Source: Schmidtea polychroa
Taxonomy: Eukaryota
NCBI GenBank assembly: GCA_044892525.1
Contig: CM097885.1
Location: forward strand, 6,882,001-6,946,000
Direction of reading: 5' to 3'
Length of the DNA: 64,000 bases
Made by a program: the position numbers and the translations under genes. Of this stretch, positions 3,761-36,345 are shown piece after piece; the stretch's first letter is position 1, and every line of letters starts with the position of its first letter. Below the pieces are notes generated by a model that did not search any database, was not told where the DNA came from, and saw only the letters and a program-made list of their open reading frames with translations.

Positions 3761-3830
<70 letters not shown>

Positions 3831-5428: not shown

Positions 5429-6201
5429 AATGAATGTATCTCATTTCAAAATTTGAAAAATTCCCTTTAACCTTTAAATTTAATAATTTTAAAACGAATA
5501 ATAATTTAAATATTAATAAATTACTCCAAACAATAGAAACTTCTTTCAACCTCTGATTTTTTTACAATTGACATTGTATTTATTAAAATCTTGACTATAA
5601 ATCAGTAAAAACAATTACGCAATCAAAAAAGCAAAAAAAACGAGTTGCAACAATTTACCCCCCCCCACCTCCCGGGGGGTAATTGTCCCAGGGCGCTACT
5701 AACTACCTACTGTTGGGCTAAATTTCAGAGTGGAGAAAACTGGAGCGAATAGAAAAGTAAACCTCGAATAATAAATAAGATAAAAATATAAAAATCTCAC
5801 TAGTAAATAGGAAGGAACGATAAAAAATCAATAAGAGAATAAGAATAGGTAAAACAAACTGAATAAAACCCAATAAATCCCTTAAGATTTAGAAATAAAA
5901 CGAGTTAAAACACACAACGGATAAAATAGAAATAGAATAAGTAAAAAAGTGACAACAAATAAACGAGAAATTTAAGAAATAAATAAAAAATAAACCATTT
6001 TAAGTCTAATTAAAACAAAAAATAATATTACAATAAAATAACAATAAGTCCGCAGAAAAATAGAAGAGAAAATAATAAAAATAAGAAAAAATAAATAAAA
6101 TAATAATAAGAATAAGCCAAGCCATTAAAAAAATTTAATATACGATGATAAAAACATAAAAATAATAATAAAGAGTAAAAATACAAACGGGTCGCGTCCT
6201 G

Positions 6202-6254
6202 ATTGGACAGAAAATAATATATAAAGAGCGACAAAAATCTGTAGAGTATCATTC
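6202..6254 (+). promoter_or_regulatory. Candidate LTR core promoter: reverse CCAAT, TATA box and initiator
   Basis: ATTGG at 6202-6206, TATAAAG at 6220 and TCATTC (TCAKTY-type Inr, A at 6251). TATA to Inr spacing is 31 nt. Same motifs at +26433 in the 3' LTR. Confidence 0.5.
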
Positions 6255-8624
6255 TAACCCGAAACTCTACAGGTAAAAGTTTATTTAAAATATTATCATC
6301 ATTCTAACCCGAAACTCTACAGGACTTCAGGACCACTTAGAACTTACTAGAACTCGTTTACGAAGCAATCCTACAAAACCACTTACAGCCGATAAGCCAT
6401 TTTAGACTACTGGTTAAGAGCCTACGGAAAGTACCGAGAACTTAGACGACTTTATTATTCTATTCGATCCAGTTTTAAACTCAAAGGTATACATTCGATT
6501 GATATTATGAATAGTTATTTGCTGTAAAAATGTTGAAAATAATGAAAAGTAGAATAAATTTTATTCAATAAATTCAATTTGAAATGAACAGCAGCCTTTT
6601 TCTTCATGGTACCGGCCACTGTACTATTTGGGACCTTCAGGCATGATGCGGCAGAGCGAAAATACGTTGTGAAAGGGTTTGCGAGTATGCGTTGCGACGG
6701 AGTAAGATATCAGTCGATTTTCGAGGTTGAAGAAGATTTGAGGAAATTGTCCAGTACGGAGGGACATGCATCTGAATGGCTCGGAAGACATCATGCTTGG
6801 AACCCAGATGGTGGGGTCGCCGGGTAAATCTGATTTATTCATTTTATTTGTTTTACAAAATTTTTCCATTAATGTCGGAGTTGATTTTGAATTGCTTGAG
6901 GAGAGGAGTTGATTGTCTCCCATGACGGTGCAAGGACGGCGGCAGAAATGAGTGCCGTTCTTGGGTGGGTCATGAGAGGTGAGGAAACTCCGTGAGTCGA
7001 AGTATAGCTGAAGAGTGAAATTTCCTTCATCGAGTGCGATCGACCACCGCTATCGTCGAAAATACACTTCTTAAAAGAGTAGTCGCGAAGATGAAATCAT
7101 GAGAAACTCCAGGAAATTGTCGAATCAACGTCTTTTAACATTACATCCAGTCGCCATCAATCGCATTGGAAAGTTAGAGTCTATGTCGTATATCCCTCGG
7201 GAAATTGACACGAGAATATCTGGTGATTGGGGAGCTATAGCTGCGTAAAAAATCCAATGTTGTTCGCAGAGAATGTCATAGAGCCCGAGATCTTCTAGAA
7301 TCCACATCGCCAGGACATTTACGACGAAACCCATAGTCAGTGTACTTTTGAGTTAGATTGTTGGTTATACGGCCACTGATAAGCCTAGATTTTCTGAGAA
7401 TAAAACAAACAAATCACGAGAAATTATCGGAATATTTACGATCGATGCTAGAGAAACCGCAGTCGAATTTATCGGAAACTGTCAAACTAATTTCAGACAG
7501 ATTATTATTCACCGGATTGTATGACTGAGGAAAATCCGCCGAAGAGAGGGAGCGATAATCGTCTCTGCCATAGGTTTAGTGAATGCGTTGATAGAGAGAT
7601 GTCTAAGAGTTGATAACGACTAGAGTAAATCATCAGTTCTGACCCGCTAGTGAATTGTCGCGTAATGATTGGGTGGATACTTCTAATCAATCTCCCAGAC
7701 AACTGAATCTTGATAATCCGCCTCATTGACATACTACCTGGAAATTCTTTCTCAGTAGACGACAAATTGTTCTGAGTCCTAACATGTTCTGTGACATAAT
7801 CGTGACGTAACAACGAGGAAGCTAATCGAGAAAACGATACTGTGTGCACAGGCGAAAGAAAGAGATCACGTGCGTAAGGCAGACACCCACTCTTAAACTA
7901 CCATTCGAAGCAAACACGTCACCAAAACCGATTCATAAGCTAGGGACAACTAACATTACTTTAGCATGCATTGTCACATGTTGAATTACATGCCACATGT
8001 AAACGAAAGACGATCTTTTAACACAACTACATATTGCGTAACGTCGTCATGACAACCTCACGGCAAAAATTTAAATAAAATCAAACCATCATAAACTAAA
8101 CTAAAGGTGAACCAAAGATGTTCTGCTGTTAATTTTTTTTCTTTTTCTATTTTATTTTTCTCTACTTGAACTACTTTAGTATAACATAACGAGGTCCATT
8201 GGATGTCGAATTTTTCTTTTATAATACGACTCGGTTTAGTTGTGTAGAACGTAGTAATGAGGAGTAAAATCGCAAACATCAGATAATGATAAATAAAATA
8301 AAGGGGTTAGTATTGTCAGCACTAGACTGATCAAGTGCGAAAAGGGGAATAGTCAAACTCATAACACGTACCGATTGTAAAATGATGACAAATAAATTAT
8401 GTCTAGAATTTTCGTTTTCTTCTCGTTAGGTGTTGATGGTTGAGGGGATGAATTTGAATGCTTGAAATTGGATGAATGGGGGCACCGACTGATAATTTGG
8501 GTGTTGGAATCACCACTGAATGGTTTGATTGCGAAAATGGTGAACCTCGTATGTAAAATAGGAACAAAATCCTAGCCAATAAATTTTGTAAAATTGATAA
8601 TAAAAAATTCTGTAAACTCTTTAG

Positions 8625-9385
8625 ATGAATACCTCTACCAGCTCTGGAAAAAATCTTCGCCCATGTCTCTCCTGCGCCGATAAAAACGCAGATATCGCGC
8701 AGCTCCACCTATATATCGGGGCATTGAAAAAGAGAATTGATCTCTACGAAGGCACGTGGTTCTCCCCGCCACAAATGAAAGAGGAACGCAAGAAAATTCT
8801 CCGATTAGAGCATTGCAGGGACAGCCTGCTGGAGGAAAGCCGTTGCCAGCGGCTCACGATCAAAGCACAATCGGAAGCCCTCCATAAAGTATATACGGAG
8901 GCAGAATTGGCCAAACGGGTCCGAGAATTTCCCGTCATCGAGAAAACCAATGTCTTCCCCCTCACCATCAGGCCTCCCAATCAACTTCAACAAGCTGCCA
9001 AGGGCATGGTACCTATCTGCCGCCCGTCCCGGCTCCAACCTTATCGAGTCATCAACCCTTGGTCGGTGGACCTACCGATCCCATCTTGGCTCCAATTTTG
9101 GTAGCACCAATCGGCACCGCGAACATAGAAAACCCTCCGTCTACTCGCAAACGGAAACGGCCAACTCGAGCCGAGAAGAATAAAAAACGCCGAGATGCGA
9201 TGGCCGCACTCGAAGCGTCACTATCGGTAGCCCAATCCACCATAAAAGAAATCTCTTCCAGCCATTCAATTCCAACGAAGGAAATTTTCCGTGTAATTCC
9301 CGCAGAGGGCATCAAATACGTCTCTAACCAACGATTGCCGGTCGACATCGACGAGATGCTTGCTGATGGAGAGTCCTTTGACTGA
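8625..9385 (+). pseudogene. LTR-encoded ORF, 5' LTR copy split by a 1-nt deletion (159 aa + 108 aa pieces)
   Basis: Same sequence as the 253-aa ORF at 35058-35819 but with C5 instead of C6 after TGTCTT. Confidence 0.7.
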
Positions 9386-9918
9386 CAGATTTCCATTGCC
9401 TTGATTCTGCAAGATTCGGAAGCGGACTTGAGTATTTGTGAATATTGAACATTTATTTTTGTGACAGCCCCTTTTTCCTTGTTATAAATGTAATTATTGT
9501 TGTGGATGTAATATAATTTTTATTGTCTCTCGGTGATTGTTTTTGGCATGCATGATATGGGATTAAAAGTGAACAATAGGACGGTATCAGATATAGGTAG
9601 CACTACAGAGTCGTCCCCTTGGACCAGGGAAGGACCGAATGATGTGTAGAGGAATGGGTAAGACCTTCTACGGCGCCATGGAACCCGAACCGAGACAGGG
9701 TTAGGAGTAGTCTTAAGGCAGAGGCTCACCTGCTAACCTTTTCCGACCCGTGTGAGCAGCACCAACGTGGAACATCACCACGGGCTCATACGTGGGAATA
9801 TGCATTTGATCATCTGGTGTATGTATGGGAAGTGCCTGAGCGGAACGATGACGCCTTGTATGAGTGAAGGTTGCGCGTGCGTAATTTTTCTCTTCCCCAC
9901 ATATGCCAACATGATTTT

Positions 9919-9936
9919 TGGGGGCTCAGCCGGGAT
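9919..9936 (+). promoter_or_regulatory. Primer-binding site complementary to the 3' 18 nt of a tRNA-Pro
   Basis: TGGGGGCTCAGCCGGGAT versus the canonical tRNA-Pro PBS of MLV, TGGGGGCTCGTCCGGGAT (16/18). Lies 7 nt after the LTR end. Confidence 0.85.
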
Positions 9937-10374: not shown

Positions 10375-10854
10375 ATGTCGGAAGCTAGACAACATCTACA
10401 ACAGCTAAGCCGGTTCATCGAAATAGAAAATGATTCAATAAAAACATTAAAGGAAAAACTGAAACAAATAGAACTGTTAGAACAACAAAGCCACAACGCA
10501 CCGCTGATATCCAAACAAAACTTTCTAACCGACAGATTAGGATCAACAAATACCGATACCGACTTGTCTACCCATTACCAATGGATGCAGCAACGACTCG
10601 ACGACCCCGCTCTGAACATCGAATATGTGAGGATACGCGAACAAGTCAAAACTCTGTCTCAGCGGATACGAACATCAATAGTAGAGAAAGCAGCGGCCTT
10701 GAGAACTTGTAACATTTGCAAGATGCGACCTGTCAAAACTCTGATTCTACCTTGTGGGCACCTTATCCATTGTGACGAATGTGCCGCCAGTTTAATCCGT
10801 TGTTCTATGTGCACATGTGTAATAAAAGAGAAGCACACAATCTATTTCAGTTAG
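10375..10854 (+). CDS. Coiled-coil plus C-terminal IAP-type RING finger protein (putative E3 ligase, no BIR)
   Basis: CNICKMRPVKTLILPCGHLIHCDECAASLIRCSMCTCVIKEKHTIYFS*. RING spacing and the terminal aromatic-Ser tail are as in IAP/MDM2-class RINGs. Confidence 0.8.
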   Translation: MSEARQHLQQLSRFIEIENDSIKTLKEKLKQIELLEQQSHNAPLISKQNFLTDRLGSTNTDTDLSTHYQWMQQRLDDPALNIEYVRIREQVKTLSQRIRTSIVEKAAALRTCNICKMRPVKTLILPCGHLIHCDECAASLIRCSMCTCVIKEKHTIYFS

Positions 10855-11446: not shown

Positions 11447-11745
11447 GCCGAGCTGTCGAAAAGTCCAGCCGGTCAGGGAAATTGAAACTGAGCTGTGAAA
11501 AGTCCAGCCAGTCGGGGATAATAAGGCCGAGTTGTTGAATAGTCCAACCGGTGAGGAGAAGAAGATTGAGCTGTTGAATAGTGCCAGCCAGTCGTAAGAT
11601 CGAGTTGTTGAATAGTCCAACCGGTCAGGAGAAGAAGATTGAGCTGTTGAATAGTGCCAGCCAGTCGTAAGATCGAGTTGTTGAATAGTCCAACCGGTCA
11701 GGAGAGGAAGATTGAGCTGTTGAATAGTGCCAGCCAGTCGTAAAG
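11447..11745 (+). repeat. Tandem repeat in the 5' leader: 73-bp higher-order unit built from two related subunits (34 + 39 bp)
   Basis: GAG(C/T)TGTTGAATAGT cores at 11568, 11602, 11641, 11675 and 11714 (period 73). More diverged copies lie upstream, about 8 subunits in all. Confidence 0.9.
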
Positions 11746-13129: not shown

Positions 13130-16078
13130 ATGATGAATGTGGTAAAAACCGACGAGTATAAAGAAAAATTTAGAGGCGAACCGTTTAACGGGAATGCGAA
13201 CAAGTTGGCAACGTTCATAACAAATTTTGAAGTCTATATCGATGTGTGCGGATGGACAGCGGAAGCAATTAGTAAACGAATGCCTCTGTTTTTGTGCGAT
13301 AGCGCACTCGAAGTGTATCTAGAAGCAAAAGAAAGAAATACGAAATTAGACAATTGGGAAAGCATCAAAACATTTTTGAGGAAAACCTTCGGAGCCAGCA
13401 AACCGATAAATCAAGCGTTAGGTGAACTGGCAAGTAGAAAACAAAGAGCAAATGAATCCATAACGTTATATGCGAGTGAATTGCGAAGATTGGCAAAAAA
13501 GGCCATGAACGGAAACTTGCCGGAGGAAAATCTAATTGGTTACTTCATAGAAGGACTGCGCCGAGAAGAGGTAAGGGCCTCGGTGGGATGTCAAATGTGT
13601 AAAACACTAGAAGAAGCCATAGATTGGGCCACAAGATGCGAACTACACCTCCCAGCACAAATGAATGTCATGCAAGAGGAGGGAAGAATCGCTACAGCAA
13701 CGGTGAAAACGGAAAACGGAGATAACAACAATCATGAACCCAAGATGAATCAGTTTATACCAGGAGCACATCAAATCTTCAAACCACCACAAGGACGATC
13801 AAATGGGAATAACAGTGAACGCAACAACTCGAACAATGGGAACAACTTTAATAATCGACGAAATATGAACGATAACAAACAATGCCGAATATGCGGTAAA
13901 CCAGGACATTGGGATAGAGATTGTTACCGAAACGCAAATTGCAATAGGTGTGGACGACGAGGACACACGGAAAATATATGCCAATTGAGAGGATGTTTTA
14001 ACTGCGGTCAACCAGGTCATATCTCAAGAGACTGTCGAGAAAGGAGCCAACAACAACGACCACCACAGCGAAATAATAACTATGCATCAAATCCGCAACG
14101 ACAAAGTAATCCTAGTGAGGGAAAGCAAATGAACGTGATGCAAGAAATTTCACAAATGAAACAGATGATGCAACAAATGATGAGACCGAGACAAGAACCA
14201 GTAGCACAACAAACCCAGAATATACGCATGATGAGGAGCACCGAGAATCTTAATAATTATGAAGTGCAACAACATGCACAAGAATGGCAAAGACTACAAG
14301 CTGAAGAAGAAAGGATAAAAAGAGAGCGAATTCAGCAACGACAAGAACAACCATTACGAATAAATATGATGAGAATGGTAAGGGAGATAAAAGAGCAATA
14401 TTGTTACAATTACGGTAAAAATCCAAGAGTTGTACCTATGAGCGAACCCGAGAAACCGAAAGAAACAATTACAGCAGCAAAAAAGGAAAATTCAACAACA
14501 CCGCTAAAAGGAAATCAGAGAATTCAGAAAATATTTTGGAAAAAGATAAAAGATAAAATCGAAAGAGAAAATGAGAAAACAAAAACAGAAGCAGAAGCGG
14601 AAAATAACAAAAATAAAAAACGGATTAATCATCTAAATCATGATATGATACAAGAATTAGACTCAGAGGAGCTAACGACATTCGAGAACAAAAAGTTAAA
14701 GAAAGTACCAAGAATGAGAAATTTGCGAATTAATATGATGAGGACAACAAAGAAGGTGTCGTCAACAGATGACGATGAGGATTACGTGAGTAGCCTTGGT
14801 GGAGAAATGTTACAGTTAAATGAAAATATCGACCAACTAAGAGAAAAGATCGGAGCAGATGAGGATGAAAGTGAAAGCGACGTGACAAGCGAAAGCGAAG
14901 ACGAGAATATCGAAATGAAATTGAGAAAAGAAAGAGAAGAAGCGATAAAACAAGTAAAGGAAATACTTCCAGTGGTGGTAAGAAACCAGGAATTCATTGA
15001 CATCATACCATACAGACGCTTCATACAAAAGATAATGAAACTAGAAAGAAACGAAAAAGATCTAATACCAAACGAGGAAAAAGCGATAATAAAGAAGTAT
15101 ATGGAAAAAATGAAACAAGCGGAGACAACACGCTATGTAATAAAAATCGGAACGAGTAAAGGACTCGAGAGAATATGGATAAAAAATGCAGTTACAGACG
15201 ATCTTTTCGATTGGATAAGAGAACATTTGGGCAGCTCGAGAAAGAAAGAATACCTGTATCAATATCAAGGAGAACAAATCAAACCAGACATGCACCTAAT
15301 AGATGCATTGATCTGGCCAGGAGAAACTCAAATATTGAAATTGCATAAAGAGAAGCAACCAGCAAATATTCACGAATGGGCTAAAGACGCCAAGGCCGAG
15401 TATGACTTTAACATCAAGCTGAAGCTGGAACAAATAAAACAATGCACCTTGCGACGAAATCTAGATAAATTAATCAAACAAATCCAAGAACAAGTTGAAG
15501 ATAACTGGGATTTGCTCATAACAAGACGAACTGCAGACATGCATGAACTAATGAGCCGACTGCGAGATACAGAACTGCTCCGAATGAGTGATTGGAGAAC
15601 CATAAATTTGATCCACAAATATGGAAGGTTGAAAGAAACGCAACCGCAGAAATTAGAAATAACCATATGGTTACCAAACGAGGAGAAACGACGAATAAAG
15701 ATGAGTAATCAGAGTACGGTGGATGACTTAGTAACCAAGATAAACCAAGAGGTAACGGAAAAAGTACGAAGCGAGAGTAGCGACGGGATGATAGATGATG
15801 TAGTCCTGATGTACGATAAAATAATATTACGGGCCGAAGACGACACCTCGCTAAGCGAAATGGGAATGTGGGATAATCATCAAATCATCAGAATATTACC
15901 CATGGACGAATTCCGAACAAGAGATGTAACATACCAGAAAGAGATACGGGACAGGATGAAAACGCTATACCAAAAATCAGTGGAGATAATTGAAATTCAT
16001 CAACAATGGCTAAAGGAAAAAGAGCTTCAAGGGAAAATAAAGAAACTGAGTACTAGATCCTGCAGACGAACCCCATGA
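13130..16078 (+). CDS. gag: Gag (capsid plus three CCHC knuckles) with long C-terminal extension carrying ubiquitin-like domains
   Basis: Retrotransposon-gag-like F.G...L..F...FE / Q...ES...YA.EL..LA / F..GL blocks, plus CRICGKPGHWDRDC, CNRCGRRGHTENIC and CFNCGQPGHISRDC. The frame is open without ATG from 12770. Confidence 0.9.
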   Translation: MMNVVKTDEYKEKFRGEPFNGNANKLATFITNFEVYIDVCGWTAEAISKRMPLFLCDSALEVYLEAKERNTKLDNWESIKTFLRKTFGASKPINQALGELASRKQRANESITLYASELRRLAKKAMNGNLPEENLIGYFIEGLRREEVRASVGCQMCKTLEEAIDWATRCELHLPAQMNVMQEEGRIATATVKTENGDNNNHEPKMNQFIPGAHQIFKPPQGRSNGNNSERNNSNNGNNFNNRRNMNDNKQCRICGKPGHWDRDCYRNANCNRCGRRGHTENICQLRGCFNCGQPGHISRDCRERSQQQRPPQRNNNYASNPQRQSNPSEGKQMNVMQEISQMKQMMQQMMRPRQEPVAQQTQNIRMMRSTENLNNYEVQQHAQEWQRLQAEEERIKRERIQQRQEQPLRINMMRMVREIKEQYCYNYGKNPRVVPMSEPEKPKETITAAKKENSTTPLKGNQRIQKIFWKKIKDKIERENEKTKTEAEAENNKNKKRINHLNHDMIQELDSEELTTFENKKLKKVPRMRNLRINMMRTTKKVSSTDDDEDYVSSLGGEMLQLNENIDQLREKIGADEDESESDVTSESEDENIEMKLRKEREEAIKQVKEILPVVVRNQEFIDIIPYRRFIQKIMKLERNEKDLIPNEEKAIIKKYMEKMKQAETTRYVIKIGTSKGLERIWIKNAVTDDLFDWIREHLGSSRKKEYLYQYQGEQIKPDMHLIDALIWPGETQILKLHKEKQPANIHEWAKDAKAEYDFNIKLKLEQIKQCTLRRNLDKLIKQIQEQVEDNWDLLITRRTADMHELMSRLRDTELLRMSDWRTINLIHKYGRLKETQPQKLEITIWLPNEEKRRIKMSNQSTVDDLVTKINQEVTEKVRSESSDGMIDDVVLMYDKIILRAEDDTSLSEMGMWDNHQIIRILPMDEFRTRDVTYQKEIRDRMKTLYQKSVEIIEIHQQWLKEKELQGKIKKLSTRSCRRTP

Positions 16079-16084
16079 GAAAGG

Positions 16085-17158: not shown

Positions 17159-17178
17159 TAGACGAATGGAATGAGTGG

Positions 17179-26100: not shown

Positions 26101-27006
26101 GACAACAAAGAGGAAGAACTAAAACAAGAAAAGAAAAAACAAGTACAAGAGCAGCAATGGGATCTAAAAGAAGAATGGGATCTAAAAGAAAGGTGTATAT
26201 TAGGAAGATGTATGTCTAGAGCTTATCAGAGACTAGTGTTAAAAAATGAAGATGCAGAACCAATAACGGAAGTGGGAATACAAGAAGCGTACCAACATCG
26301 AAACGGGAAGAAGATAACAAAAGTCAAATGGAAAGAGGTACACCTGAGTAAAGGAGGGGAAATAGTGATAACACAGCTTCAACCAAGAAAAGAGCACAAA
26401 GTGTGTATTTCGAGGCTAGGCCCAGGAGAAAATTGTCTACAATATGTAACGCAACAACAACCACCAAAGGAATATACGGTATGTATCCTGAGAAACGGTC
26501 CAGAAAGAGAATGTCGACGATACCCTGGGAAAAGAGGGAGGAAAAGAAAAATCAATGATGAAAAAGATGAGCAAGGAAAACGCAAGAAAAACAGTGAGAA
26601 ACATCAAGACAATTATGTATCCGAGGAGGAGATGGAGAAAATACAAAAAATGGCAAAGGAAGGTATGAACGAGGAAATAGCAAGAATACGAGGAATGATG
26701 AAAGGAAATGGCAAAGACGGTAATCTAAAAAGCACAGAAGCAATATCAACAATAACGAACAAGGGAAAAGCGGAAATTATAAGCGTAAAACAGATGATGT
26801 GGATCAGCGGCATAATAATAACAGGGGCCTTTTTAATCATAACGGGGGGGACAATAAAAATAATCAAAGATAGACGGCATCGCGGAGAACTAGAAATGGC
26901 CAGAATAAGAAATTTTCAACATCGTGTAAAACGACCAAGTAATATCAAGCAGGAACAGTGGGTGGAGGCCTGTAATGCTCAGCGCCCTCCAAGCTCACGT
27001 ATATAG
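17179..27006 (+). CDS. pol: 3,275-aa polyprotein: AT-hook, Bcl-2-like, Env-like glycoprotein, PR, RT, RNase H, IN, ankyrin repeats, C-terminal membrane protein
   Basis: Single ORF whose frame opens at 17092 and overlaps the upstream ORF in the -1 frame. Motifs are listed in the sub-features. Confidence 0.95.
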   Translation: MRNNDSSLPRTDNERNPSYETTRETGTMMEKRAKGRPRKQGEKPEFKTREQLKQEQGQVRLEKLDKIVWDLKEAQPTIERGEKWIRELVKDMLIITNPQLRRLWQRKVASVDARQLWNTISGIIPKLIKEKTKTTKTDWEETRRVIEQLTLNANDDEHHLVVLTYLMYNLMGLAARKIPNKQFANHVEMTVTIIENTIEPHIIRAGGWKRLIQAPRKNEQERSMQIRLKKLLNELEWELPLKDPASRKASINSLMMTMMIWMLCTSGAAGFTIYDCDNSIIGERYSLRDIEECRQAFPNKLDIVKKKVSYHVYQESDFIRTQARECVVSKKVLAYYCGQYSYSTLILPGLDKEMVPIQREDCKELFRTGAMRIRDGVTIHGQSGMIKTESIYVAGRVKSTDGSCNGGTYTIRGEVISGVVVIESYTVELKEYEAQFDANNYQMKTNPACRATENVCRTGISTIIYEANTQKCRLQLLKSALFNEVKGEIYENEDDDEENGNVRMRNGKPVPPSPKEKRLTTQKSPTALITDDPDIGMRFIREKETTKCDSIVYRTNYAGIYMSRQVIDRAVGKVATEDVKLYLYANNKMDFLFHRGQTTMQKVYYDLIQNDCSLNKEILKTKLAIAITHPDNTMPSLPLPDGHFGRMVGEVMYTYACTKTFARLPRKPTIPPGKCANELEISYKGRNRFVQPVTRIMNPIGFYPNTFNCSNAYGPLYEKPDGKWIMLPVKTEVQEPKKFGLIELATEQDFKPIDVSKAGMYSPEDLETARLNVLFPARRESILSNMVTITGGTNFQSGPNYELLLSPDHFQQATSNMMKAMWGRFLVFGQMMAGILGIILIIQIVRVILTQMLACFDIYKREKKVNWKLIVGFLPFLAKTMVLHGHSKDIHRIKRLIKILTKIKGTDEEVGRRFRKTMYDEATRAQLKKNKPKFLDRFRNRSNSSDSDDDDNGNDKYPYPSRNPNEKPMETAPYWEKEKTNTWIANGSYIPPDIVGQQTALTMTQNMYPQLPSQPGMNYMPTRRTKSVDQADDVRTIAVMSSPGGAAVTVMIQINGKETSAMIDTGANVSAIAINQIPSKCWKDIEQTTIHIIACSKETVDVVGRWWTTLRYQDNEIETYLAVIPKLSEPCIIGTDLMPELFKEVVIDLTTMCLKDKMGRICKMNAIIRCPEKIIVPAKSQMICQIKVDAGMEGEAIFEPSKSFEKRRELPLAREIITIKEDREIPINITNFEEEDKIIYENERLGRLTPMIDIELPKITNETTKADELWTIDSTLLTEKEKERLQQLLIEYKDIFAISDLDLGACDVTLHAIPLIDETPIALRPYKLAEKQKEIAEAEVQKMLDAQVIEPSCSPWQFPVVMVKKKDGTQRFCIDYRKLNAVTKRDTYPLPDINEMLLMLQGAAYFTSLDLKSGYWQIKVKEEDKEKTAFTLGRDLYQFRKMPFGLTNAPASFQRCMNFVTHGIKQCMVYIDDLLIYSATFEQHLEDIRNVFIRLRQWKLKLKPSKCDWAKEKVTFLGQIVSAKGKEPDPRNIEKIKTCPAPKTVTQVQEFLGLCGYYRKFIKNYAGIAKPIQELVKKDISFIWGAEQQKAFETLRDKLIEAPILVHPDFKKPFLLATDASGYAAGAILGQLDEEGKERVIGYYSRTFKKHEKNYSVTEREALAIIQAIKHFRYLLWGHEICITTDHQPLVWLGQHKEASSRLMRWAMQLQEYSPFIKFKAGRANANADCMSRFIFPDLVDHEMQRICLMVAEDLDFCQLRKDQQEDTELKQIIEYVKTGKAEVYEKDQKLKEHMDKHRHRYIIEKDWLLIMDGEKRLMCIPENRRKDLLTQYHDGRLGGHMSSKKTLARMKQKYFWPTLTEDVTEWVKNCITCATRKNTGTKWKAPLKPMPVPAEPMTMISMDVVGPLPESDRGNIYILVITDYLTKFPEAFAMADQKARTIAKILVEEICCRYGTPKQILTDQGTNFMSEIMSEVTNYFKIAKFRTSPYHPQTNGMTERFNGTLIQMLSNYVDRHQRDWDEYIKLCLMAYRMSIHASTKMSPFRLMYGRECNMPMDLEYQPPISQYMEIDDYVTKFKERMQEIWETAGLNIKFYQESYKELHDRKKNVKQHTFQTGDWVMIETPELIPGTTKKLQRNGKGPYEILFIGETNVRVRLVNNPFTRPIYVNVARCKPIPKTATSQPEGRTLTTRSQTYRINMLQQINEPTGNRLGLQPSEAEKIIKEVKAKMPGWAEDRLDFEILGGLLTMIENYANRERTHPLLRVVKSQWPILFTITDHYGDTPLHKLLKVGSNEQILETIEAFRDCNISTDQENNQGCTPLMIAANRDKAKDIIIALLETGSKITTQDHNHKNALHHAIEGKSTEAFIILVDLLSYEDNREIGNMYDGLLTAIKEKLITITGILIAWRNPIKNDYMVDINETFTKGENTLMREAMRGHHLFEIPNQLLQRGIKFSNHKDEQLIRNRITNFEKAISQFTDKVQVKFWETVSVLYMMENMNNIRETYLSIIQVLTAEERINSSNKKKIKIKKITARESEKRVDQIIRYIATTSKPKIINSDQEIVIRKAKEVFFEEMQDLSDEAILAKITKTVHTYARDQTTNLDIEKIKTFIPLAFTLPTKDSRTPLQQAILAAKENRAITIIRILRDFGEESNAKNEQGETAMMYAAITNIHPKTLHILHQSGSRLNEISNEGNSTMDWATIQPNLEMIRFICKNATRTEVENICKNTSQFQWNTIRMNLEAMKLLLTWKIPQTNKYAININEFYENGENAMVKNTLTKGGTPKIIMIVLNREDLKFTQNLNEQKRIGKHRRIQLRELVKEWNRKRHVATGRKEFEFEAKLARNRVLTAYRRLLNDINVEDDILNDSGGDKDDKDDDNNEKGRNGNKEKEKSEENNQENNDASRKKEENNPGNRRKQEEKTNSGKQRVCLLFTNKEMETNMMIMILVLTMVEMITAQGGMRTIKEAKETENKDNKEEELKQEKKKQVQEQQWDLKEEWDLKERCILGRCMSRAYQRLVLKNEDAEPITEVGIQEAYQHRNGKKITKVKWKEVHLSKGGEIVITQLQPRKEHKVCISRLGPGENCLQYVTQQQPPKEYTVCILRNGPERECRRYPGKRGRKRKINDEKDEQGKRKKNSEKHQDNYVSEEEMEKIQKMAKEGMNEEIARIRGMMKGNGKDGNLKSTEAISTITNKGKAEIISVKQMMWISGIIITGAFLIITGGTIKIIKDRRHRGELEMARIRNFQHRVKRPSNIKQEQWVEACNAQRPPSSRI
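17400..17825 (+). other. Bcl-2-like domain within the polyprotein
   Basis: IEPHIIRAGGWKRL matches BH2 (L..WI...GGW..F). ETRRVIEQLTLNANDDEHHLVVLTYL sits in the BH1 position, but NWGR is degenerate. Confidence 0.6.
17941..19740 (+). other. Envelope-like glycoprotein resembling chuvirus-type (class III) fusion proteins
   Basis: Signal-like MMTMMIWMLCTSGAAG, then FTIYDC...SLRDIEEC, EC....LAYYCGQYS, SCNGG, ANNKMDF...QNDC.L, GEVMY..C, CANEL.I.......FVQPVTRI and a TM WGRFLVFGQMMAGILGIILIIQIV. The order of blocks follows chuvirus-like glycoproteins as I recall them. Confidence 0.72.
20320..20640 (+). other. Retropepsin (aspartic protease), followed by a dUTPase-like spacer
   Basis: AMIDTGANVS (D at 20368) and IIGTDL. 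Confidence 0.95.
21140..22380 (+). other. Reverse transcriptase and RNase H, Ty3/gypsy type
   Basis: PVVMVKKKDG..RFCIDYRKLN, LDLKSGYWQI, MPFGLTNAPASFQ, YIDD (21586-21597), TDASGYAAGAIL, YSVTEREALAI, TDHQPL. Confidence 0.98.
22620..23710 (+). other. Integrase (HHCC, DD35E, GPY/F)
   Basis: HDGRLGGH...CITC. D at 22888, D at 23068 and E at 23176 (35-residue spacing). GPY at 23602. Confidence 0.97.
24010..25520 (+). other. Ankyrin-repeat region after integrase
   Basis: GDTPLHKLL, GCTPLMIAA, KNALHHAI, GENTLMREA, RTPLQQAI, GETAMMYAA, GNSTMDWA. Confidence 0.85.
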
Positions 27007-27174: not shown

Positions 27175-27534
27175 ATGGAACGAATAGGCGAGGAAGTAAA
27201 TCACAGTACGACAACCGAGGAGATGTGGAAACAACAATGTGCAATGTTAACTCAAGTGATTTCGAATTTACAGGAACAAGGACTCGCTGTACAAAGAAGC
27301 TTAGTCGAAAGTTTAAATAAAGGCTTCAGTTATGTAAGAATAATCGAAGACCAACGAATAAAAATAGAACAAATGCAGCGAGAGATAGACCGAATATCAC
27401 GATACAGCCAGGTGCAAGAAGAGGAGTTAATAAGAATCGCGGAAGAGATGGAGCGAGAGGAGATAGAAGACTGGTCAGAATGGTTAACCAGCAGGGAAGA
27501 GGGCGGACAAGAGGCCGACTCTTCCAGCCAATAA
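27175..27534 (+). CDS. Accessory coiled-coil protein, about 119 aa (first ATG at 27175)
   Basis: Heptad-rich Q/E/R sequence with the same codon style as the element's other ORFs. Confidence 0.6.
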   Translation: MERIGEEVNHSTTTEEMWKQQCAMLTQVISNLQEQGLAVQRSLVESLNKGFSYVRIIEDQRIKIEQMQREIDRISRYSQVQEEELIRIAEEMEREEIEDWSEWLTSREEGGQEADSSSQ

Positions 27535-27623
27535 ATATAACCTAAAATAGCAATGTAAATAACTGTAAATAAAAATACGAAACTGTACCAGTAATGAATA
27601 TATGTATATATATAATTATAGAA

Positions 27624-29012
27624 ATGGATAAGCGACAACGAGAAGAATTCAAAGAAATTGTTGAACAAGTCAGAAAGTCCACCACAATTCGAATACACAA
27701 CCATGTAACGTGTGGAATATGCAAGAGCTTATTAAGAGAACCTCACCAAACCAGATGTGGATGCAGAATGTGCAGAGAATGTGTAGAGGAGATAATAAAG
27801 AAGGGACCACAATGGTGCCCAGTATGCAAAGAAACAATGATAACAAGTTTGGGAGATACAAACGAAGATAAAGCAGCTGTAAAAGATATGTTGAATGCAA
27901 ACCTAGGATGTAAAAACACCCCATGTAATTGGCGAGGAGTGATATGGGAAGTGAGGCAACATATGGAGCAATGTGAGTATAAAATCAGTCAATGCAAACG
28001 TTGCCAAGAAGAGATTAAAGTCAATGAAGAAGCAGAACATCAAAGTCGATGCGAAGAAAGACTGGAGAAATGTGAGTATTGCGGAGAAACCGACACCTGG
28101 AAAAAACTAATCAGTCAACATCACAACATACAAGAGAAGAAAGTGTGCGCAGAATTCAGAGGAGAATGCCCCAACAAATGCGATAAACCCGGAGTAATAA
28201 AACTCGCTCAACATCTAAAAGAATGTGAAAGAAAAAAGATAACGTGTGTGCTAGGAAAATGGGGATGTCAGAAACAATTACACCGAGGGGAATTACCCCA
28301 ACATCTAGCAGAAAACGTATCAACACACGCGGAAATATGGTCAACAGTATTACAAGAAAACGAAAGGAAAACCGAAAACTTAGAAAGAGAAATAGTCTCG
28401 CTAAAAGCGTTGGTAAAAGAACTATTGGAAGAAAAGGAAGCATTTGAAGAGGCGAGAACAAGTACAAAGATACAGACAGATCTAGTGGAAACTAGCAACA
28501 TTATGGTGAAAGAACTACATCAAAAAGTAAGCGAATTAAACCTCAACGAATTAATACCCACGGCTCCATACATATGGAAAATAACGGGAGTAAAAGAGAA
28601 GATGCAGAGAGCGAGAAATGGAAAGGATACAACATTACTAAGTCCAGCATTCTACTCATGGAAAAACGGGTATAAAATGAAAATGAAAGCATACCCCAAT
28701 GGGGATGGAAGTGCATACGGAACGCATTTCTCAGTATTCTTCTTGATGTGCAAAGGGCTATACGACGAGTTAATAGAATGGTCATTCAAAGCAAAAATAG
28801 ACCTCGTAATGATGAACTATCAAAGTATACATGAACAGAGTTTCCATACAGCGGGAAACCTCGTATGTTACCAAAGGCCCTTGGAAGAAGAAGGACCAGC
28901 AACTGGAGCACCGAATTTCATCCTACAGCGGAAAGCAGAAGACATGACGAGAAACGACACTATATACATAAAAATAGCGGTGAGGCGAGACGGGAAGAGT
29001 AGGACTGAGTAG
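27624..29012 (+). CDS. Intronless TRAF-family protein (RING, TRAF zinc fingers, coiled coil, MATH) carried by the retroelement
   Basis: CGICKSLLREPHQTRCGCRMCREC...CPVC, C.N..C.W.G...EV.QH...C repeats, and YIWKITG...SPAFYS..NGYKM....YPNGDG...GTH.SVF....KG.YD....W.F. Confidence 0.92.
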   Translation: MDKRQREEFKEIVEQVRKSTTIRIHNHVTCGICKSLLREPHQTRCGCRMCRECVEEIIKKGPQWCPVCKETMITSLGDTNEDKAAVKDMLNANLGCKNTPCNWRGVIWEVRQHMEQCEYKISQCKRCQEEIKVNEEAEHQSRCEERLEKCEYCGETDTWKKLISQHHNIQEKKVCAEFRGECPNKCDKPGVIKLAQHLKECERKKITCVLGKWGCQKQLHRGELPQHLAENVSTHAEIWSTVLQENERKTENLEREIVSLKALVKELLEEKEAFEEARTSTKIQTDLVETSNIMVKELHQKVSELNLNELIPTAPYIWKITGVKEKMQRARNGKDTTLLSPAFYSWKNGYKMKMKAYPNGDGSAYGTHFSVFFLMCKGLYDELIEWSFKAKIDLVMMNYQSIHEQSFHTAGNLVCYQRPLEEEGPATGAPNFILQRKAEDMTRNDTIYIKIAVRRDGKSRTE

Positions 29013-29229: not shown

Positions 29230-30267
29230 ATGACTCAAGATCAAACGGAAGCCCCAAATAACGAAATAAACATCAGTAGAATACATAGAGAAAGATGGGC
29301 CAAAGTGATGATACAATTATCAAACCAAACACGAAATTACCTCGAAGAAGCGAGAGAATGGGAAAACCACCAATTCCAGTGGTTAGTACAGAATTTACGG
29401 GCGGAGGCCGAGGCCTGCAAAAGAGCCGCCAAATGGTCGGCATTAGAAAATACCAGGCAAGAGGCGCACGGGCATTACCTGACGCAGCTGGTACAGGAGT
29501 CAAGAAAAAGACTAACGGATGAGAATAAGAAGCGGGAAATAGAAAAACAAAAGGAGGAAAGAAAGACCCGCCAACTACTAGCAGAGGCCAGAAAGTGGAA
29601 AAAACAACATCGAGAAATCCAAAAAGAGATGAGAGAATTGCCGCAGAGATTGGAATACGAAAGTGAACAAGGGAAATGGGAGGAAAACCTTGATCAGAGA
29701 GAAGAGCTAAGAAGGCTCAGGAAAATAGCGGCACGAAGTCAAACCTGGCAGACCAAGGCCATGGAATTTGAAAGGCATCTAGCCATGAAACTGTCCATGA
29801 AGGAACAGGAGAATACCGCCATGGAAGAGATGATCCTGCAACAGTCAGGTAGAATCGTCGAACTCGTAAACAAGGTGGCAGATCTTGAAAGAGACAATAA
29901 CGGCTATAAGGGGGCACTAGAACAAAGGAATATAGTGCTAGTCGGTAAGAACAAGAAATTGGAAAACGAGAGGAAGATGTATGACGAAAATATCAAGAAC
30001 CTCGAAAAGGAGATCAAAAAATGGGAGAACGGCGAAAAAGCGGAAGAGTTAGAAAAACAGATCGAAGTAAGGGACGACGAAACCAGGTATCTAACATACC
30101 TGTTGGACGAGGAACTCAATGCGTCAAGAGCACTAAGAGACGAAGTTCAGGAACTTAGAGCGCAGATTCCCCGGTACTACATCCCATTTGATCCCATCGC
30201 AATCCAACTACAAACGTCAATAGACAGCGATGAAGGATATGTAGGCCAGGAAGAGACCTTCGTATAA
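29230..30267 (+). CDS. Accessory long coiled-coil protein, 345 aa, function unknown
   Basis: Long ORF with continuous heptad pattern and no catalytic motif seen. Confidence 0.75.
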   Translation: MTQDQTEAPNNEINISRIHRERWAKVMIQLSNQTRNYLEEAREWENHQFQWLVQNLRAEAEACKRAAKWSALENTRQEAHGHYLTQLVQESRKRLTDENKKREIEKQKEERKTRQLLAEARKWKKQHREIQKEMRELPQRLEYESEQGKWEENLDQREELRRLRKIAARSQTWQTKAMEFERHLAMKLSMKEQENTAMEEMILQQSGRIVELVNKVADLERDNNGYKGALEQRNIVLVGKNKKLENERKMYDENIKNLEKEIKKWENGEKAEELEKQIEVRDDETRYLTYLLDEELNASRALRDEVQELRAQIPRYYIPFDPIAIQLQTSIDSDEGYVGQEETFV

Positions 30268-30442
30268 AGATAAATGGAAAAGATAAAAAATATAAAAATC
30301 GGGACCTATATCCCAACAAAAAAATTAATGGTACAGTAAAAGTAGGAAAGGGACTGTAGCCCTGATTATATAAATAACATATAATTGTATAAGCATAAGC
30401 CGCACTGTAGCGCAATCATTAATTATGTATATATTATAGAAA

Positions 30443-31165
30443 ATGAATACTGAAAACGGACAACCCATCATGACATCGATAATCGAGCTAGAGGAGGGAG
30501 AAATTGAAGTTGAGGAAGTGGAGAGGAAGAAAACTATCAAAGAAGAATTACAAGAAGAGAGACAAGAAAACGAAAGATTAGTAGAAAGGTGGAGAGATAA
30601 TCGAAAAATGATTAAAGTATTGAAAAGAGAATACACCTTGCTAGAAGAAGTAAAGAAAGAAGTAGAGGAAGAAAATGAATGGCTTCACGAGCAAAGAAAG
30701 CGAGGGAGAAATTGGGAAAAGATCGCGGAAGAATTATGGCAGGAAAGAGCCAGTCTCAAGGCTAATGAAGTGATTGAAGATTACTGGAAAACGGAAGCGA
30801 GGAAACGACAAGAAACTATCAGGGGTCTAGAAAACCAGCTGGGAGTAAAAGTACAGGAAAGTGCAGAAATGGAGAAATGGATCAATAAATACCGAGAAAT
30901 AGAAATAAAACGGCAGAAACAAAGTCCAAAGACGAACGACCCAGAGGAAAATGATTTCCTACAATTGGAACTAGAACGGAACCTGGAGGAGAAGAAGAAG
31001 GAGATAAAAACCTTGAAAAGAGAGATAAAGCACTTGACGGACAAGGTCCAAGAGAAAGATAGGCAGCTCGAAATGTTGCCGGAACTCCGACATAGGGTCA
31101 TTAAAGCAGAATCTAAATTAATGAGAATCCGAGAAAGAGACCCTAAAAAGAAACGACAAAATTAA
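30443..31165 (+). CDS. Accessory coiled-coil protein, 240 aa, function unknown
   Basis: E/K/R-rich heptads and a basic C-terminus (PKKKRQN). Confidence 0.7.
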   Translation: MNTENGQPIMTSIIELEEGEIEVEEVERKKTIKEELQEERQENERLVERWRDNRKMIKVLKREYTLLEEVKKEVEEENEWLHEQRKRGRNWEKIAEELWQERASLKANEVIEDYWKTEARKRQETIRGLENQLGVKVQESAEMEKWINKYREIEIKRQKQSPKTNDPEENDFLQLELERNLEEKKKEIKTLKREIKHLTDKVQEKDRQLEMLPELRHRVIKAESKLMRIRERDPKKKRQN

Positions 31166-31225
31166 AACCAACAAAAAAGCGATGTATATAAATATGTATA
31201 AAATAACTAAATGTATATCAGTATC

Positions 31226-31885
31226 ATGAGAAGCCAACCGATCATTGTAACGCTGATGATGATGATAATTCTTGATCTAACACGACGACAGCCAGTGAAA
31301 CCCCAAATCGAACGGGTTCGAGACAACAGAAAACCCAATCAGAAAATCGAACCAACAACCCCATCGTGCACCTGCTCAAATGCCATAAGAACCAATCTTA
31401 TCAATAACCTTCGAGCAACCCGAAACTACATCAACAACATCAGAATTATGTGTAATCACAACCCTATGTGTAAAATCATCGATAAAAGAATTCTGGACCA
31501 AATTCACCAAGTCGATTAATTAGAACAGCAGGTCCAACACCAAGAAACACAAAACCCACCTGATCAAGTAAAAAGCCCGAATGAAATAAACCACACCTAT
31601 GAACTCCTCTATGTGGTAATCGCCGAGACCACCTTAATCACAATAGTCACCCTGCTAAAAATCTATAACCTCTGCAAAGTTTGGAAGAAAAGTCACCCCG
31701 TATCAGAAAGATCATCTCGAAGGTCCCAAGAAGCTAACATGGCTGAAGTAATCCAAGAAAACCTCCGTCAACGAACCTCCATCGCAGAAACAGTCAGACC
31801 ATCCGCAAGTCGCCGAATATACTACAACATCGAACCCCAACAACCAAATCTCCCATCATCAACGGCAACTGAACAACACACATAA
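31226..31885 (+). pseudogene. Putative type I membrane protein (about 219 codons) split by one in-frame TAA at 31517-31519
   Basis: ORFs 31211-31519 and 31613-31885 share a frame and the interval between them is open. Signal-like IIVTLMMMIIL, Cys-containing ectodomain, TM LLYVVIAETTLITIVTLL. Confidence 0.55.
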
Positions 31886-32143: not shown

Positions 32144-35100
32144 TGTTGGGCTAAATTTCAGAGTGGAGAAAACTGGAGCGAATAGAAAAGTAAACCTCGA
32201 ATAATAAATAAGATAAAAATATAAAAATCTCACTAGTAAATAGGAAGGAACGATAAAAAATCAATAAGAGAATAAGAATAGGTAAAACAAACTGAATAAA
32301 ACCCAATAAATCCCTTAAGATTTAGAAATAAAACGAGTTAAAACACACAACGGATAAAATAGAAATAGAATAAGTAAAAAAGTGACAACAAATAAACGAG
32401 AAATTTAAGAAATAAATAAAAAATAAACCATTTTAAGTCTAATTAAAACAAAAAATAATATTACAATAAAATAACAATAAGTCCGCAGAAAAATAGAAGA
32501 GAAAATAATAAAAATAAGAAAAAATAAATAAAATAATAATAAGAATAAGCCAAGCCATTAAAAAAATTTAATATACGATGATAAAAACATAAAAATAATA
32601 ATAAAGAGTAAAAATACAAACGGGTCGCGTCCTGATTGGACAGAAAATAATATATAAAGAGCGACAAAAATCTGTAGAGTATCATTCTAACCCGAAACTC
32701 TACAGGTAAAAGTTTATTTAAAATATTATCATCATTCTAACCCGAAACTCTACAGGACTTCAGGACCACTTAGCAGCTACTAGAACTCGTTTACGAAGCA
32801 ATCCTACAAAACCACTTACAGCCGATAAGCCAGTTTAGACTACTGGTTAAGAGCCTACGGAAAGTACCGAGAACTTAGACGACTTTATTATTCTATTCGA
32901 TCCAGTTTTAAACTCAAAGGTATACATTCGATTGATATTATGAATAGTTATTTGCTGTAAAAATGTTGAAAATAATGAAAAGTAGAATAAATTTTATTCA
33001 ATAAATTCAATTTGAAATGAACAGCAGCCTTTTTCTTCATGGTACCGGCCACTGTACTATCTGGGACCTTCAGGCATGATGCGGCAGAGCGAAAATACGT
33101 TGTGAAAGGGTTTGCGAGTATGCGTTGCGACGGAGTAAGATATCAGTCGATTTTCGAGGTTGAAGAAGATTTGAGGAAATTGTCCAGTACGGAGGGACAT
33201 GCATCTGAATGGCTCGGAAGACATCATGCTTGGAACCCAGATGGTGGGGTCGCCGGGTAAATCTGATTTATTCATTTTATTTGTTTTACAAAATTTTTCC
33301 ATTAATGTCGGAGTTGATTTTGAATTGCTTGAGGAGAGGAGTTGATTGTCTCCCATGACGGTGCAAGGACGGCGGCAGAAATGAGTGCCGTTCTTGGGTG
33401 GGTCATGAGAGGTGAGGAAACTCCGTGAGTCGAAGTATAGCTGAAGAGTGAAATTTCCTTCATCGAGTGCGATCGACCACCGCTATCGTCGAAAATACAC
33501 TTCTTAAAAGAGTAGTCGCGAAGATGAAATCATGAGAAACTCCAGGAAATTGTCGAATCAACGTCTTTTAACATTACATCCAGTCGCCATCAATCGCATT
33601 GGAAAGTTAGAGTCTATGTCGTATATCCCTCGGGAAATTGACACGAGAATATCTGGTGATTGGGGAGCTATAGCTGCGTAAAAAATCCAATGTTGTTCGC
33701 AGAGAATGTCATAGAGCCCGAGATCTTCTAGAATCCACATCGCCAGGACATTTACGACGAAACCCATAGTCAGTGTACTTTTGAGTTAGATTGTTGGTTA
33801 TACGGCCACTGATAAGCCTAGATTTTCTGAGAATAAAACAAACAAATCACGAGAAATTATCGGAATATTTACGATCGATGCTAGAGAAACCGCAGTCGAA
33901 TTTATCGGAAACTGTCAAACTAATTTCAGACAGATTATTATTCACCGGATTGTATGACTGAGGAAAATCCGCCGAAGAGAGGGAGCGATAATCGTCTCTG
34001 CCATAGGTTTAGTGAATGCGTTGATAGAGAGATGTCTAAGAGTTGATAACGACTAGAGTAAATCATCAGTTCTGACCCGCTAGTGAATTGTCGCGTAATG
34101 ATTGGGTGGATACTTCTAATCAATCTCCCAGACAACTGAATCTTGATAATCCGCCTCATTGACATACTACCTGGAAATTCTTTCTCAGTAGACGACAAAT
34201 TGTTCTGAGTCCTAACATGTTCTGTGACATAATCGTGACGTAACAACGAGGAAGCTAATCGAGAAAACGATACTGTGTGCACAGGCGAAAGAAAGAGATC
34301 ACGTGCGTAAGGCAGACACCCACTCTTAAACTACCATTCGAAGCAAACACGTCACCAAAACCGATTCATAAGCTAGGGACAACTAACATTACTTTAGCAT
34401 GCATTGTCACATGTTGAATTACATGCCACATGTAAACGAAAGACGATCTTTTAACACAACTACATATTGCGTAACGTCGTCATGACAACCTCACGGCAAA
34501 AATTTAAATAAAATCAAACCATCATAAACTAAACTAAAGGTGAACCAAAGATGTTCTGCTGTTAATTTTTTTTCTTTTTCTATTTTATTTTTCTCTACTT
34601 GAACTACTTTAGTATAACATAACGAGGTCCATTGGATGTCGAATTTTTCTTTTATAATACGACTCGGTTTAGTTGTGTAGAACGTAGTAATGAGGAGTAA
34701 AATCGCAAACATCAGATAATGATAAATAAAATAAAGGGGTTAGTATTGTCAGCACTAGACTGATCAAGTGCGAAAAGGGGAATAGTCAAACTCATAACAC
34801 GTACCGATTGTAAAATGATGACAAATAAATTATGTCTAGAATTTTCGTTTTCTTCTCGTTAGGTGTTGATGGTTGAGGGGATGAATTTGAATGCTTGAAA
34901 TTGGATGAATGGGGGCACCGACTGATAATTTGGGTGTTGGAATCACCACTGAATGGTTTGATTGCGAAAATGGTGAACCTCGTATGTAAAATAGGAACAA
35001 AATCCTAGCCAATAAATTTTGTAAAATTGATAATAAAAAATTCTGTAAACTCTTTAGATGAATACCTCTACCAGCTCTGGAAAAAATCTTCGCCCATGTC

Positions 35101-36345
35101 TCTCCTGCGCCGATAAAAACGCAGATATCGCGCAGCTCCACCTATATATCGGGGCATTGAAAAAGAGAATTGATCTCTACGAAGGCACGTGGTTCTCCCC
35201 GCCACAAATGAAAGAGGAACGCAAGAAAATTCTCCGATTAGAGCATTGCAGGGACAGCCTGCTGGAGGAAAGCCGTTGCCAGCGGCTCACGATCAAAGCA
35301 CAATCGGAAGCCCTCCATAAAGTATATACGGAGGCAGAATTGGCCAAACGGGTCCGAGAATTTCCCGTCATCGAGAAAACCAATGTCTTCCCCCCTCACC
35401 ATCAGGCCTCCCAATCAACTTCAACAAGCTGCCAAGGGCATGGTACCTATCTGCCGCCCGTCCCGGCTCCAACCTTATCGAGTCATCAACCCTTGGTCGG
35501 TGGACCTACCGATCCCATCTTGGCTCCAATTTTGGTAGCACCAATCGGCACCGCGAACATAGAAAACCCTCCGTCTACTCGCAAACGGAAACGGCCAACT
35601 CGAGCCGAGAAGAATAAAAAACGCCGAGATGCGATGGCCGCACTCGAAGCGTCACTATCGGTAGCCCAATCCACCATAAAAGAAATCTCTTCCAGCCATT
35701 CAATTCCAACGAAGGAAATTTTCCGTGTAATTCCCGCAGAGGGCATCAAATACGTCTCTAACCAACGATTGCCGGTCGACATCGACGAGATGCTTGCTGA
35801 TGGGGAGTCCTTTGACTGACAGATTTCCATTGCCTTGATTCTGCAAGATTCGGAAGCGGACTTGAGTATTTGTGAATATTGAACATTTATTTTTGTGACA
35901 GCCCCTTTTTCCTTGTTATAAATGTAATTATTGTTGTGGATGTAATATAATTTTTATTGTCTCTCGGTGATTGTTTTTGGCATGCATGATATGGGATTAA
36001 AAGTGAACAATAGGACGGTATCAGATATAGGTAGCACTACAGAGTCGTCCCCTTGGACCAGGGAAGGACCGAATGATGTGTAGAGGAATGGGTAAGACCT
36101 TCTACGGCGCCATGGAACCCGAACCGAGACAGGGTTAGGAGTAGTCTTAAGGCAGAGGCTCACCTGCTAACCTTTTCCGACCCGTGTGAGCAGCACCAAC
36201 GTGGAACATCACCACGGGCTCATACGTGGGAATATGCATTTGATCATCTGGTGTATGTATGGGAAGTGCCTGAGCGGAACGATGACGCCTTGTATGAGTG
36301 AAGGTTGCGCGTGCGTAATTTTTCTCTTCCCCACATATGCCAACA
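32144..36345 (+). repeat. 3' LTR (4,202 bp)
   Basis: Starts TGTTGGGCTAAATTTC and ends ATATGCCAACA, followed by the TSD CTAC. Confidence 0.97.
35058..35819 (+). CDS. LTR-encoded 253-aa protein of unknown function (CxxC, coiled coil, Pro-rich linker, basic NLS-like motif)
   Basis: Intact in the 3' LTR: CLSC, heptads, RKRKRP. The ATG is immediately preceded by CTCTTTAG. Confidence 0.6.
   Translation: MNTSTSSGKNLRPCLSCADKNADIAQLHLYIGALKKRIDLYEGTWFSPPQMKEERKKILRLEHCRDSLLEESRCQRLTIKAQSEALHKVYTEAELAKRVREFPVIEKTNVFPPHHQASQSTSTSCQGHGTYLPPVPAPTLSSHQPLVGGPTDPILAPILVAPIGTANIENPPSTRKRKRPTRAEKNKKRRDAMAALEASLSVAQSTIKEISSSHSIPTKEIFRVIPAEGIKYVSNQRLPVDIDEMLADGESFD

Follow-up and report, generated by a model that had tools for sequence, protein, structure and literature searches.

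A giant retrovirus-like element of 30,635 bp has been identified at positions 5711 to 36345 of the stretch of Schmidtea polychroa DNA analysed here (64,000 nucleotides of contig CM097885.1, assembly GCA_044892525.1, positions 6,882,001 to 6,946,000; referred to throughout as the window). We consider it, at a probability of roughly 85%, to be a recently inserted and now defective copy of a high-copy Ty3/gypsy family of the Burro clade, sister to Burro1, whose members likely bud as enveloped particles. Its envelope gene (env) sits within the polyprotein, in frame, between Gag and the protease (PR).

Structure and age of the insertion

Features of the Ty3/gypsy group (Metaviridae) are present: two long terminal repeats (LTRs) with TG...CA termini, a short target-site duplication (TSD) and a tRNA primer-binding site (PBS), the internal part between the LTRs being 22,232 bp long (Table 1). 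The initial annotation of this DNA, made from the letters alone, had described a complete LTR-PBS-gag-pol-LTR structure with a TSD, 4.2-kb LTRs with few differences, a young insertion and a Ty3/gypsy identity, and on all of these counts it has stood: the coordinates are exact, CTAC is found at both ends, the PBS pairs at 18 of 18 positions with the 3' end plus CCA of the host tRNA-Pro(TGG), and the LTRs differ by 6 substitutions (3 transitions and 3 transversions) and one 1-bp indel (Kimura two-parameter distance 0.00143). The pol domains run PR, reverse transcriptase (RT), RNase H (RH), integrase (IN), and the nearest solved relative of the RT is that of Ty3 (E 1.7e-90). At an illustrative rate of 1e-8 substitutions per site per year, which is not host-specific, the two LTRs would have separated ~70,000 years ago.

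CTAC is proven as the TSD by two paralogous empty sites elsewhere on the chromosome (L081 and L082), in which the left and right flanks are joined and which each hold it once. The same tRNA-Pro PBS stands behind the LTR in the other copies, as it does in the sister family described below. Upstream of the 3' LTR a motif is conserved across copies; the test for a polypurine tract found no plain purine run there. The first tRNA pattern match tried as primer tRNA was rejected; it is the PBS of another element and no tRNA. The tRNA-Pro(TGG) genes form a long tandem array with a 475-bp period at 130.9 Mb on C1, and 1,577 pattern matches are found genome-wide.

The window copy itself is broken. The giant open reading frame (ORF), ORF1, is interrupted by a stop at 16076-16078 and by a frameshift near 17.1 kb, which between them isolate its middle part on the 5' and 3' sides respectively; a further stop (31517-31519) interrupts a small membrane-protein ORF, and the ORF within the 5' LTR is frameshifted. 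Among 78 stretches checked, these breaks recur only in the two further copies of this locus in the assembly. As predicted from its sequence, the copy is unable to make its polyprotein and would depend on proteins from elsewhere in the family for its mobility. The whole block with the insertion occurs three times, at 6.89 Mb and 7.16 Mb on C1 and on C144, at 99-100% identity and with the same breaks; it is either a segmental duplication or a redundant part of the assembly.

Envelope protein and selection

The suggestion of an envelope made in the initial annotation is supported, and the protein is of the fusion type, with a PF24664 match. It consists of a 551-aa ectodomain with 14 cysteines, followed by a transmembrane helix; an internal signal peptide likely precedes the ectodomain, as placed by its position and by comparison with relatives. 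A structural model (pLDDT 89, from 113 aligned sequences) finds its best Foldseek matches among herpesvirus gB proteins (E 5e-13, TM score 0.41, rmsd 12.5), the global overlap being modest, and by its predicted fold the protein is a class III (gB-like) fusogen. The layout is that of gB-type GAG-ENV-POL elements, with the gB-like ectodomain lying between the assigned signal peptide and the transmembrane helix, ahead of pol.

Ratios of nonsynonymous to synonymous divergence (dN/dS) were obtained pairwise between the window element and five copies, several of the distant pairs being saturated. The env ectodomain gives 0.02-0.05 in all five comparisons, which is as low as RT (RT-RH 0.02-0.04 where measurable; Gag 0.03-0.04). 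The highest values seen for any ORF, 0.32 and 0.43, come from the closest pair, with few changes behind them. Every ORF is under purifying selection, and at the level of the family all of the cargo behaves as functional protein.

A less probable reading, which nevertheless keeps appreciable weight, is that the family moves only inside cells, env being retained for another role (fusion between cells, anchoring of assembly sites to membranes or some benefit for the host) or simply as an open frame leading to pol. Particles have been shown neither here nor in the available literature passages on relatives, and, with env in frame with pol, stops in env are selected against whatever env does. However, an open frame fails to explain the conservation of the amino acids themselves, with an env dN of only 0.06 at a dS of 1.3 between subfamilies, and 11 cysteines are near-invariant across the 113 aligned env proteins. 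On balance, we lean towards enveloped spread at the level of the family.

Relationship to the Burro elements

A search for BIR domains brought out a second abundant family in the same genome (150 of 309 BIR candidates were scored, most of them in frames of 392-393 aa). It is represented here by four copies, in two of which ORF1 is covered from Gag onwards, in one from the end of Gag and in one only from RT onwards. Its ORF1 has the order Gag-MATH-Ubl-BCL2-env-PR-RT-IN-ANK (Ubl, ubiquitin-like; ANK, ankyrin repeats), followed downstream by ORF A, TRAF, a 392-aa BIR-RING (IAP) ORF and coiled-coil ORFs. This is exactly the order published for Burro1/GYPSM1 (PMC6431247). The two families are colinear and 86-89% identical over RT-RH, and they form one clade (100/100) in an RT-RH tree of 24 rows without named references. 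By sequence, then, the window element is placed as sister to a Burro1-like family in the same genome.

Burro, or GYPSM1, has been described from Schmidtea mediterranea and Dugesia as a group of giant gypsy-like LTR elements over 30 kb long, with a giant ORF, motifs for BCL2, ubiquitin-like, MATH, ankyrin and BIR domains, and an in-frame env matching mononegavirus glycoproteins, for which a provirus hypothesis was put forward in 2019 (PMC6431247, as far as its Burro section goes); BURRO1 is called abundant and active in the part of PMC8532177 that concerns it. The initial annotation had called the window element Burro-like, and its size, giant ORF and in-frame env, together with its clade-mate of Burro1 layout, bear this out. 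According to that section of PMC6431247, the shared features include the length above 30 kb, a ~4,800-aa ORF1, Gag-CCHC, an in-frame env of mononegavirus-type similarity before PR, PR-RT-RH-IN, ankyrins and TRAF/MATH cargo, with weakly matching Ubl and BCL2-like regions besides. Multi-kb LTRs and high copy number likewise fit the clade, as does the single giant ORF1 (~4,900 aa), which is present in the family and broken in the window copy. Env is in frame, with Gag/BCL2 ahead of it and PR behind; the regions resembling BCL2 and ubiquitin/SUMO before it are in the right positions, with Pfam scores (E 0.023 and 0.049) below the cut-off. Unlike Burro/GYPSM1 as described in the same section, the window family has no MATH in ORF1 and no BIR; its upstream ORF carries a RING only, and a full-length TRAF forms a separate downstream ORF. 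The second membrane protein, the LTR ORF and the tRNA-Pro PBS, all discussed below or above, go unmentioned in the Burro section of that paper.

Flatworm GAG-ENV-POL errantiviruses with a gB-type env have also been catalogued, at least in the portion of PMC13524379 considered here. Smed_errantivirus_5 resembles the window element in its HSV/gB-type env and its GAG-ENV-POL order, and the two env proteins are ~55% identical (74 of ~131 residues, counted by eye); its entry covers the ORF region only (16.9 kb, 1 intact copy), with no LTR and no PBS, and the words "accessory" and "ankyrin" are absent from the main text as available. With the architecture in print for Burro/GYPSM1 (PMC6431247) and for flatworm GAG-ENV-POL elements (PMC13524379), going by these portions of both papers, the novelty first seen in it falls away, as the initial annotation had allowed that it might. 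From sequence, the element is best regarded as a new family of an already established kind, set apart from Burro1 by the published description.

Among BEL/Pao elements, those carrying a chuvirus-like glycoprotein reportedly bear the name Anakin. Such elements (PMC7642597, in the passages concerned) have a glycoprotein of a class related to that of the window element, and belong to another superfamily and another host. A parallel in cargo is offered by Burro1, which reportedly protects its host (Lee et al., 2026, Dev Cell, as summarised in PMC13465017, in the part available), a benefit ascribed to a BIR-RING IAP. Burro1 and the window family are both giant planarian elements with cargo related to apoptosis; the IAP is lacking in the window family and present in its sister.

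It is very improbable that the element is Burro1 itself, for all that the size class and the core order are the same. MATH is absent from the window ORF1 in the Pfam scan and present in that of the sister, no BIR was found by Pfam in the 11 element ORFs scanned, and the window TRAF is followed by the next ORF after 217 bp, which leaves no room for the BIR-RING ORF (a 392-aa IAP) that the sister carries at this position. The env proteins also differ in affinity, that of the window being nearest to Smed_errantivirus_5 and that of the sister to Smed_errantivirus_6 (by eye, among the catalogued sequences available). These relatives of the element point to a dugesiid planarian as its host.

Copies elsewhere in the genome

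At least 150 RT matches at 97% identity or more are present (all of the best 150, which were the ones scored), and 61 of these lie in one frame of at least 4,700 aa (~4,700-4,800 aa). Fifteen copies were taken at intervals down this list; 13 of them are independent insertions, and the remaining two repeat the same insertion, flanks included. TRAF is found in 12 of the 13. Ten have a complete env and two a partial one, and in one it is deleted. Complete copies measure ~30.1-30.8 kb and have 4-bp TSDs. The comparison of LTRs covered 17 of 18 groups, one copy being without an LTR pair; 9 of the 13 insertions show 0-1 LTR mismatches, which places the window copy outside the youngest group. For its own LTR type, 28 of the 40 matches scored reach 93% identity or more, six of these coming from the triplicated locus.

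Recombination between subfamilies is likely, to judge from the sequences, because LTR types swap (copies 94-96% identical internally bear LTRs that are only ~40% alignable) and synonymous divergence changes abruptly from one part of the element to another, from a dS of 0.04 at TRAF to 2.2 at the next ORF. A head-to-tail tandem with common LTRs was also seen at 72.64-72.70 Mb on C1, where three LTRs stand 26.4 kb apart with two RT matches. The danger, raised by the initial annotation itself, that the 30-kb interior might be mis-assembled or a chimera of nested elements is negligible: the threefold locus with its common flanks and breaks does point to real local duplication or redundancy, and the patchy divergence to recombination, but the cargo is shared, order and length are the same in independent insertions on four chromosomes, empty sites exist and the sister family is colinear, and at the level of the family the chimera is refuted.

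Predicted second membrane protein and accessory genes

One feature may be new, a predicted second membrane protein at the end of the polyprotein. By hydropathy, this C-terminal segment comprises a hydrophobic leader, a 244-aa ectodomain, a transmembrane helix and a tail. The same leader-ectodomain-helix arrangement occurs in the sister family, in six of eight relatives of one set (the other two stop before RT) and in all three proteins that reach past integrase from a second set of 12 relatives. The C-terminal segments of the window element and of metagenomic relatives are not alignable in sequence. A model of the window ectodomain reached a pLDDT of 47.6 from seven sequences (one stop-containing sequence was left out), from which no fold or function is claimed; its best structural Z, 8.2, is to generic beta-sandwiches and within the chance range, and an FN3-like look is by eye only. 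No literature match was found in the sources available, though Grohme 2018, Lee 2026 or supplements may describe both the protein and the family. Four metagenomic relatives (P0001, P0002, P0007 and P0010) have two or three aspartic-protease-like domains per polyprotein.

In the element, for which the initial annotation had noted same-strand accessory ORFs and domains, Pfam found Gag, env, PR, RT, RH, IN, ankyrin, TRAF and RING (Table 1). Between PR and RT, where the Burro clade has a dUTPase-like region, lies a conserved 95-aa stretch without a Pfam dUTPase match. The Bcl-2-like region is 35% identical to the same position in the sister family (E 2e-21). The LTR ORF is retained in every LTR variant examined, while the remaining LTR diverges. 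Accessory ORFs are likely translated from spliced mRNAs, since a pyrimidine-rich YAG stands just upstream of the ATG in 5 of 7 of them, as against 50 of 540 ATGs of the internal region. Contigs of four runs, two of them RNA by guess only, cover 26-30 of 30 bins of 9500-29400 and have no clear splice joint there, a stretch too short for leader-to-accessory joints.

Table 1. Features of the element in the window
Feature	Position	Strand	Evidence and remarks
TSD, 5' copy (CTAC, 4 bp)	5707..5710	+	Single CTAC at empty paralogous sites
5' LTR	5711..9911	+	4,201 bp; ORF inside frameshifted by 1-bp indel
PBS, tRNA-Pro(TGG)	9919..9936	+	Starts 7 nt past 5' LTR
Upstream accessory ORF (159 aa) with a C3HC4 RING at its C terminus and no BIR	10375..10854	+	Pfam zf-C3HC4_3 E 1.5e-8; dN/dS 0.16-0.30
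Leader tandem repeats, 73-bp unit	11450..11743	+	Copy number differs among copies
Gag (Retrotrans_gag with CCHC knuckles) and the ORF1 sequence after it	13130..16078	+	Ended by premature stop in window copy
ORF1 middle, weak ubiquitin-like domain	16079..17158	+	Pfam ubiquitin E 0.049, below cut-off; dN/dS 0.04-0.18
Divergent Bcl-2-like region	17596..17802	+	Pfam Bcl-2 E 0.023, below cut-off
Envelope	17935..19752	+	PF24664 E 6.9e-72; gB-like fold model; dN/dS 0.02-0.05
PR-RT-RNase H-integrase, Ty3/gypsy order	20326..23157	+	Pfam
Ankyrin repeats	24076..25461	+	Pfam Ank_2 E 2.6e-16
Predicted second type-I membrane protein, polyprotein end	25999..27006	+	Hydropathy; dN/dS 0.03-0.17
Accessory ORF A, 119 aa, coiled-coil-like	27175..27534	+	Pfam scan, no family
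Full-length TRAF without introns (RING, zinc fingers, coiled coil, MATH)	27624..29012	+	MATH_2 E 8.4e-24, RING E 9.7e-5; dN/dS 0.17-0.24
Accessory ORFs of 345 and 240 aa, both coiled-coil	29230..31165	+	Pfam scan, no family
Small predicted membrane-protein ORF	31211..31885	+	Hydropathy; interrupted by a stop in window copy
3' LTR	32144..36345	+	4,202 bp; LTR comparison
LTR-encoded ORF, 253 aa, coiled coil and basic Arg/Lys motif	35058..35819	+	dN/dS 0.13-0.14
TSD, 3' copy (CTAC)	36346..36349	+	Flank comparison

Proposed life cycle

In intact members of the family, Gag, the gB-like fusion glycoprotein and the replication enzymes are encoded in one giant reading frame. The resulting polyprotein, of ~4,800 aa, is predicted to cross the membrane of the endoplasmic reticulum, with the two ectodomains in the lumen and with Gag/Ubl/Bcl-2 and PR-RT-RH-IN-ANK on the cytoplasmic side, and would be cleaved by signal peptidase and by the element's own protease; a conserved second hydrophobic stretch past the env transmembrane helix would need to be re-entrant. 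Reverse transcription would be primed from tRNA-Pro, and integration produces the 4-bp duplication. By analogy with their counterparts among host proteins, the Bcl-2-like, TRAF and RING cargo probably interferes with cell-death and immune signalling of the host, dampening both.

Several points weigh against the reading of the element as a young member of an enveloped Burro-clade family. The copies were drawn from the best RT matches and are biased to young ones, and identical LTRs may also arise by assembly polishing or gene conversion. The env signal peptide falls under the hydropathy threshold in the window protein, and the topology is that given by hydropathy only. The Bcl-2 and ubiquitin scores are sub-threshold in Pfam; the Bcl-2 region of the sister had no match in a Pfam scan, and that of the window had none (0) among PDB sequences. 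The Burro placement was made by published layout and through the sister family. Finally, the family is known here from its genes, the particles, proteins and spliced mRNAs being inferred.

A more far-reaching version, in which the family is an active, infectious and complex planarian retrovirus, with a gB-like fusogen and a separate C-terminal attachment protein cut from a multi-pass polyprotein, spliced accessory genes, an LTR-encoded regulator and cell-to-cell spread, for example into stem cells, is a speculative extrapolation from the sequence that we regard as doubtful when taken whole.

Neighbouring elements

The triplicated block is flanked by two copies of a ~28-kb Maverick/Polinton-like element, at 1-5020 and 63649-64000 of the window, which have AGTAGT ends and long, satellite-rich inverted repeats, and which encode a family-B polymerase (E 8e-15), a double jelly-roll capsid protein (E 6e-26), an A32 ATPase and a PLA2-integrase; the junction without this element was seen in L072, L081 and L082. 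Remnants of a hAT transposase (zf-BED and the hAT dimerisation domain) lie in pieces at 43982-45834, and a fragment of another reverse transcriptase at 55749-56198. A TRAF-like gene outside the element, at 50350-51923 (RING E 0.008, MATH E 8e-18), is not close to the element TRAF; derivation of the latter from it was considered and is unsupported, only 21 of 63 residues aligning.

Significance

The window element adds one more Burro family with its full anatomy, including a tRNA-Pro primer, a 4-bp TSD, swapped LTR types and modular cargo. Selection on env as strong as that on RT, in a very recently inserted family, supports the Burro-provirus proposal of 2019 with evidence that goes beyond what that paper offers (PMC6431247, in its passages on Burro). 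The window family, which lacks the IAP to which a host benefit is credited, and its IAP-bearing sister form a natural pair for comparing parasitic with mutualistic cargo. Should the second membrane protein prove to be an attachment protein, the way in which this reverse-transcribing element enters cells would be unusual for its kind.

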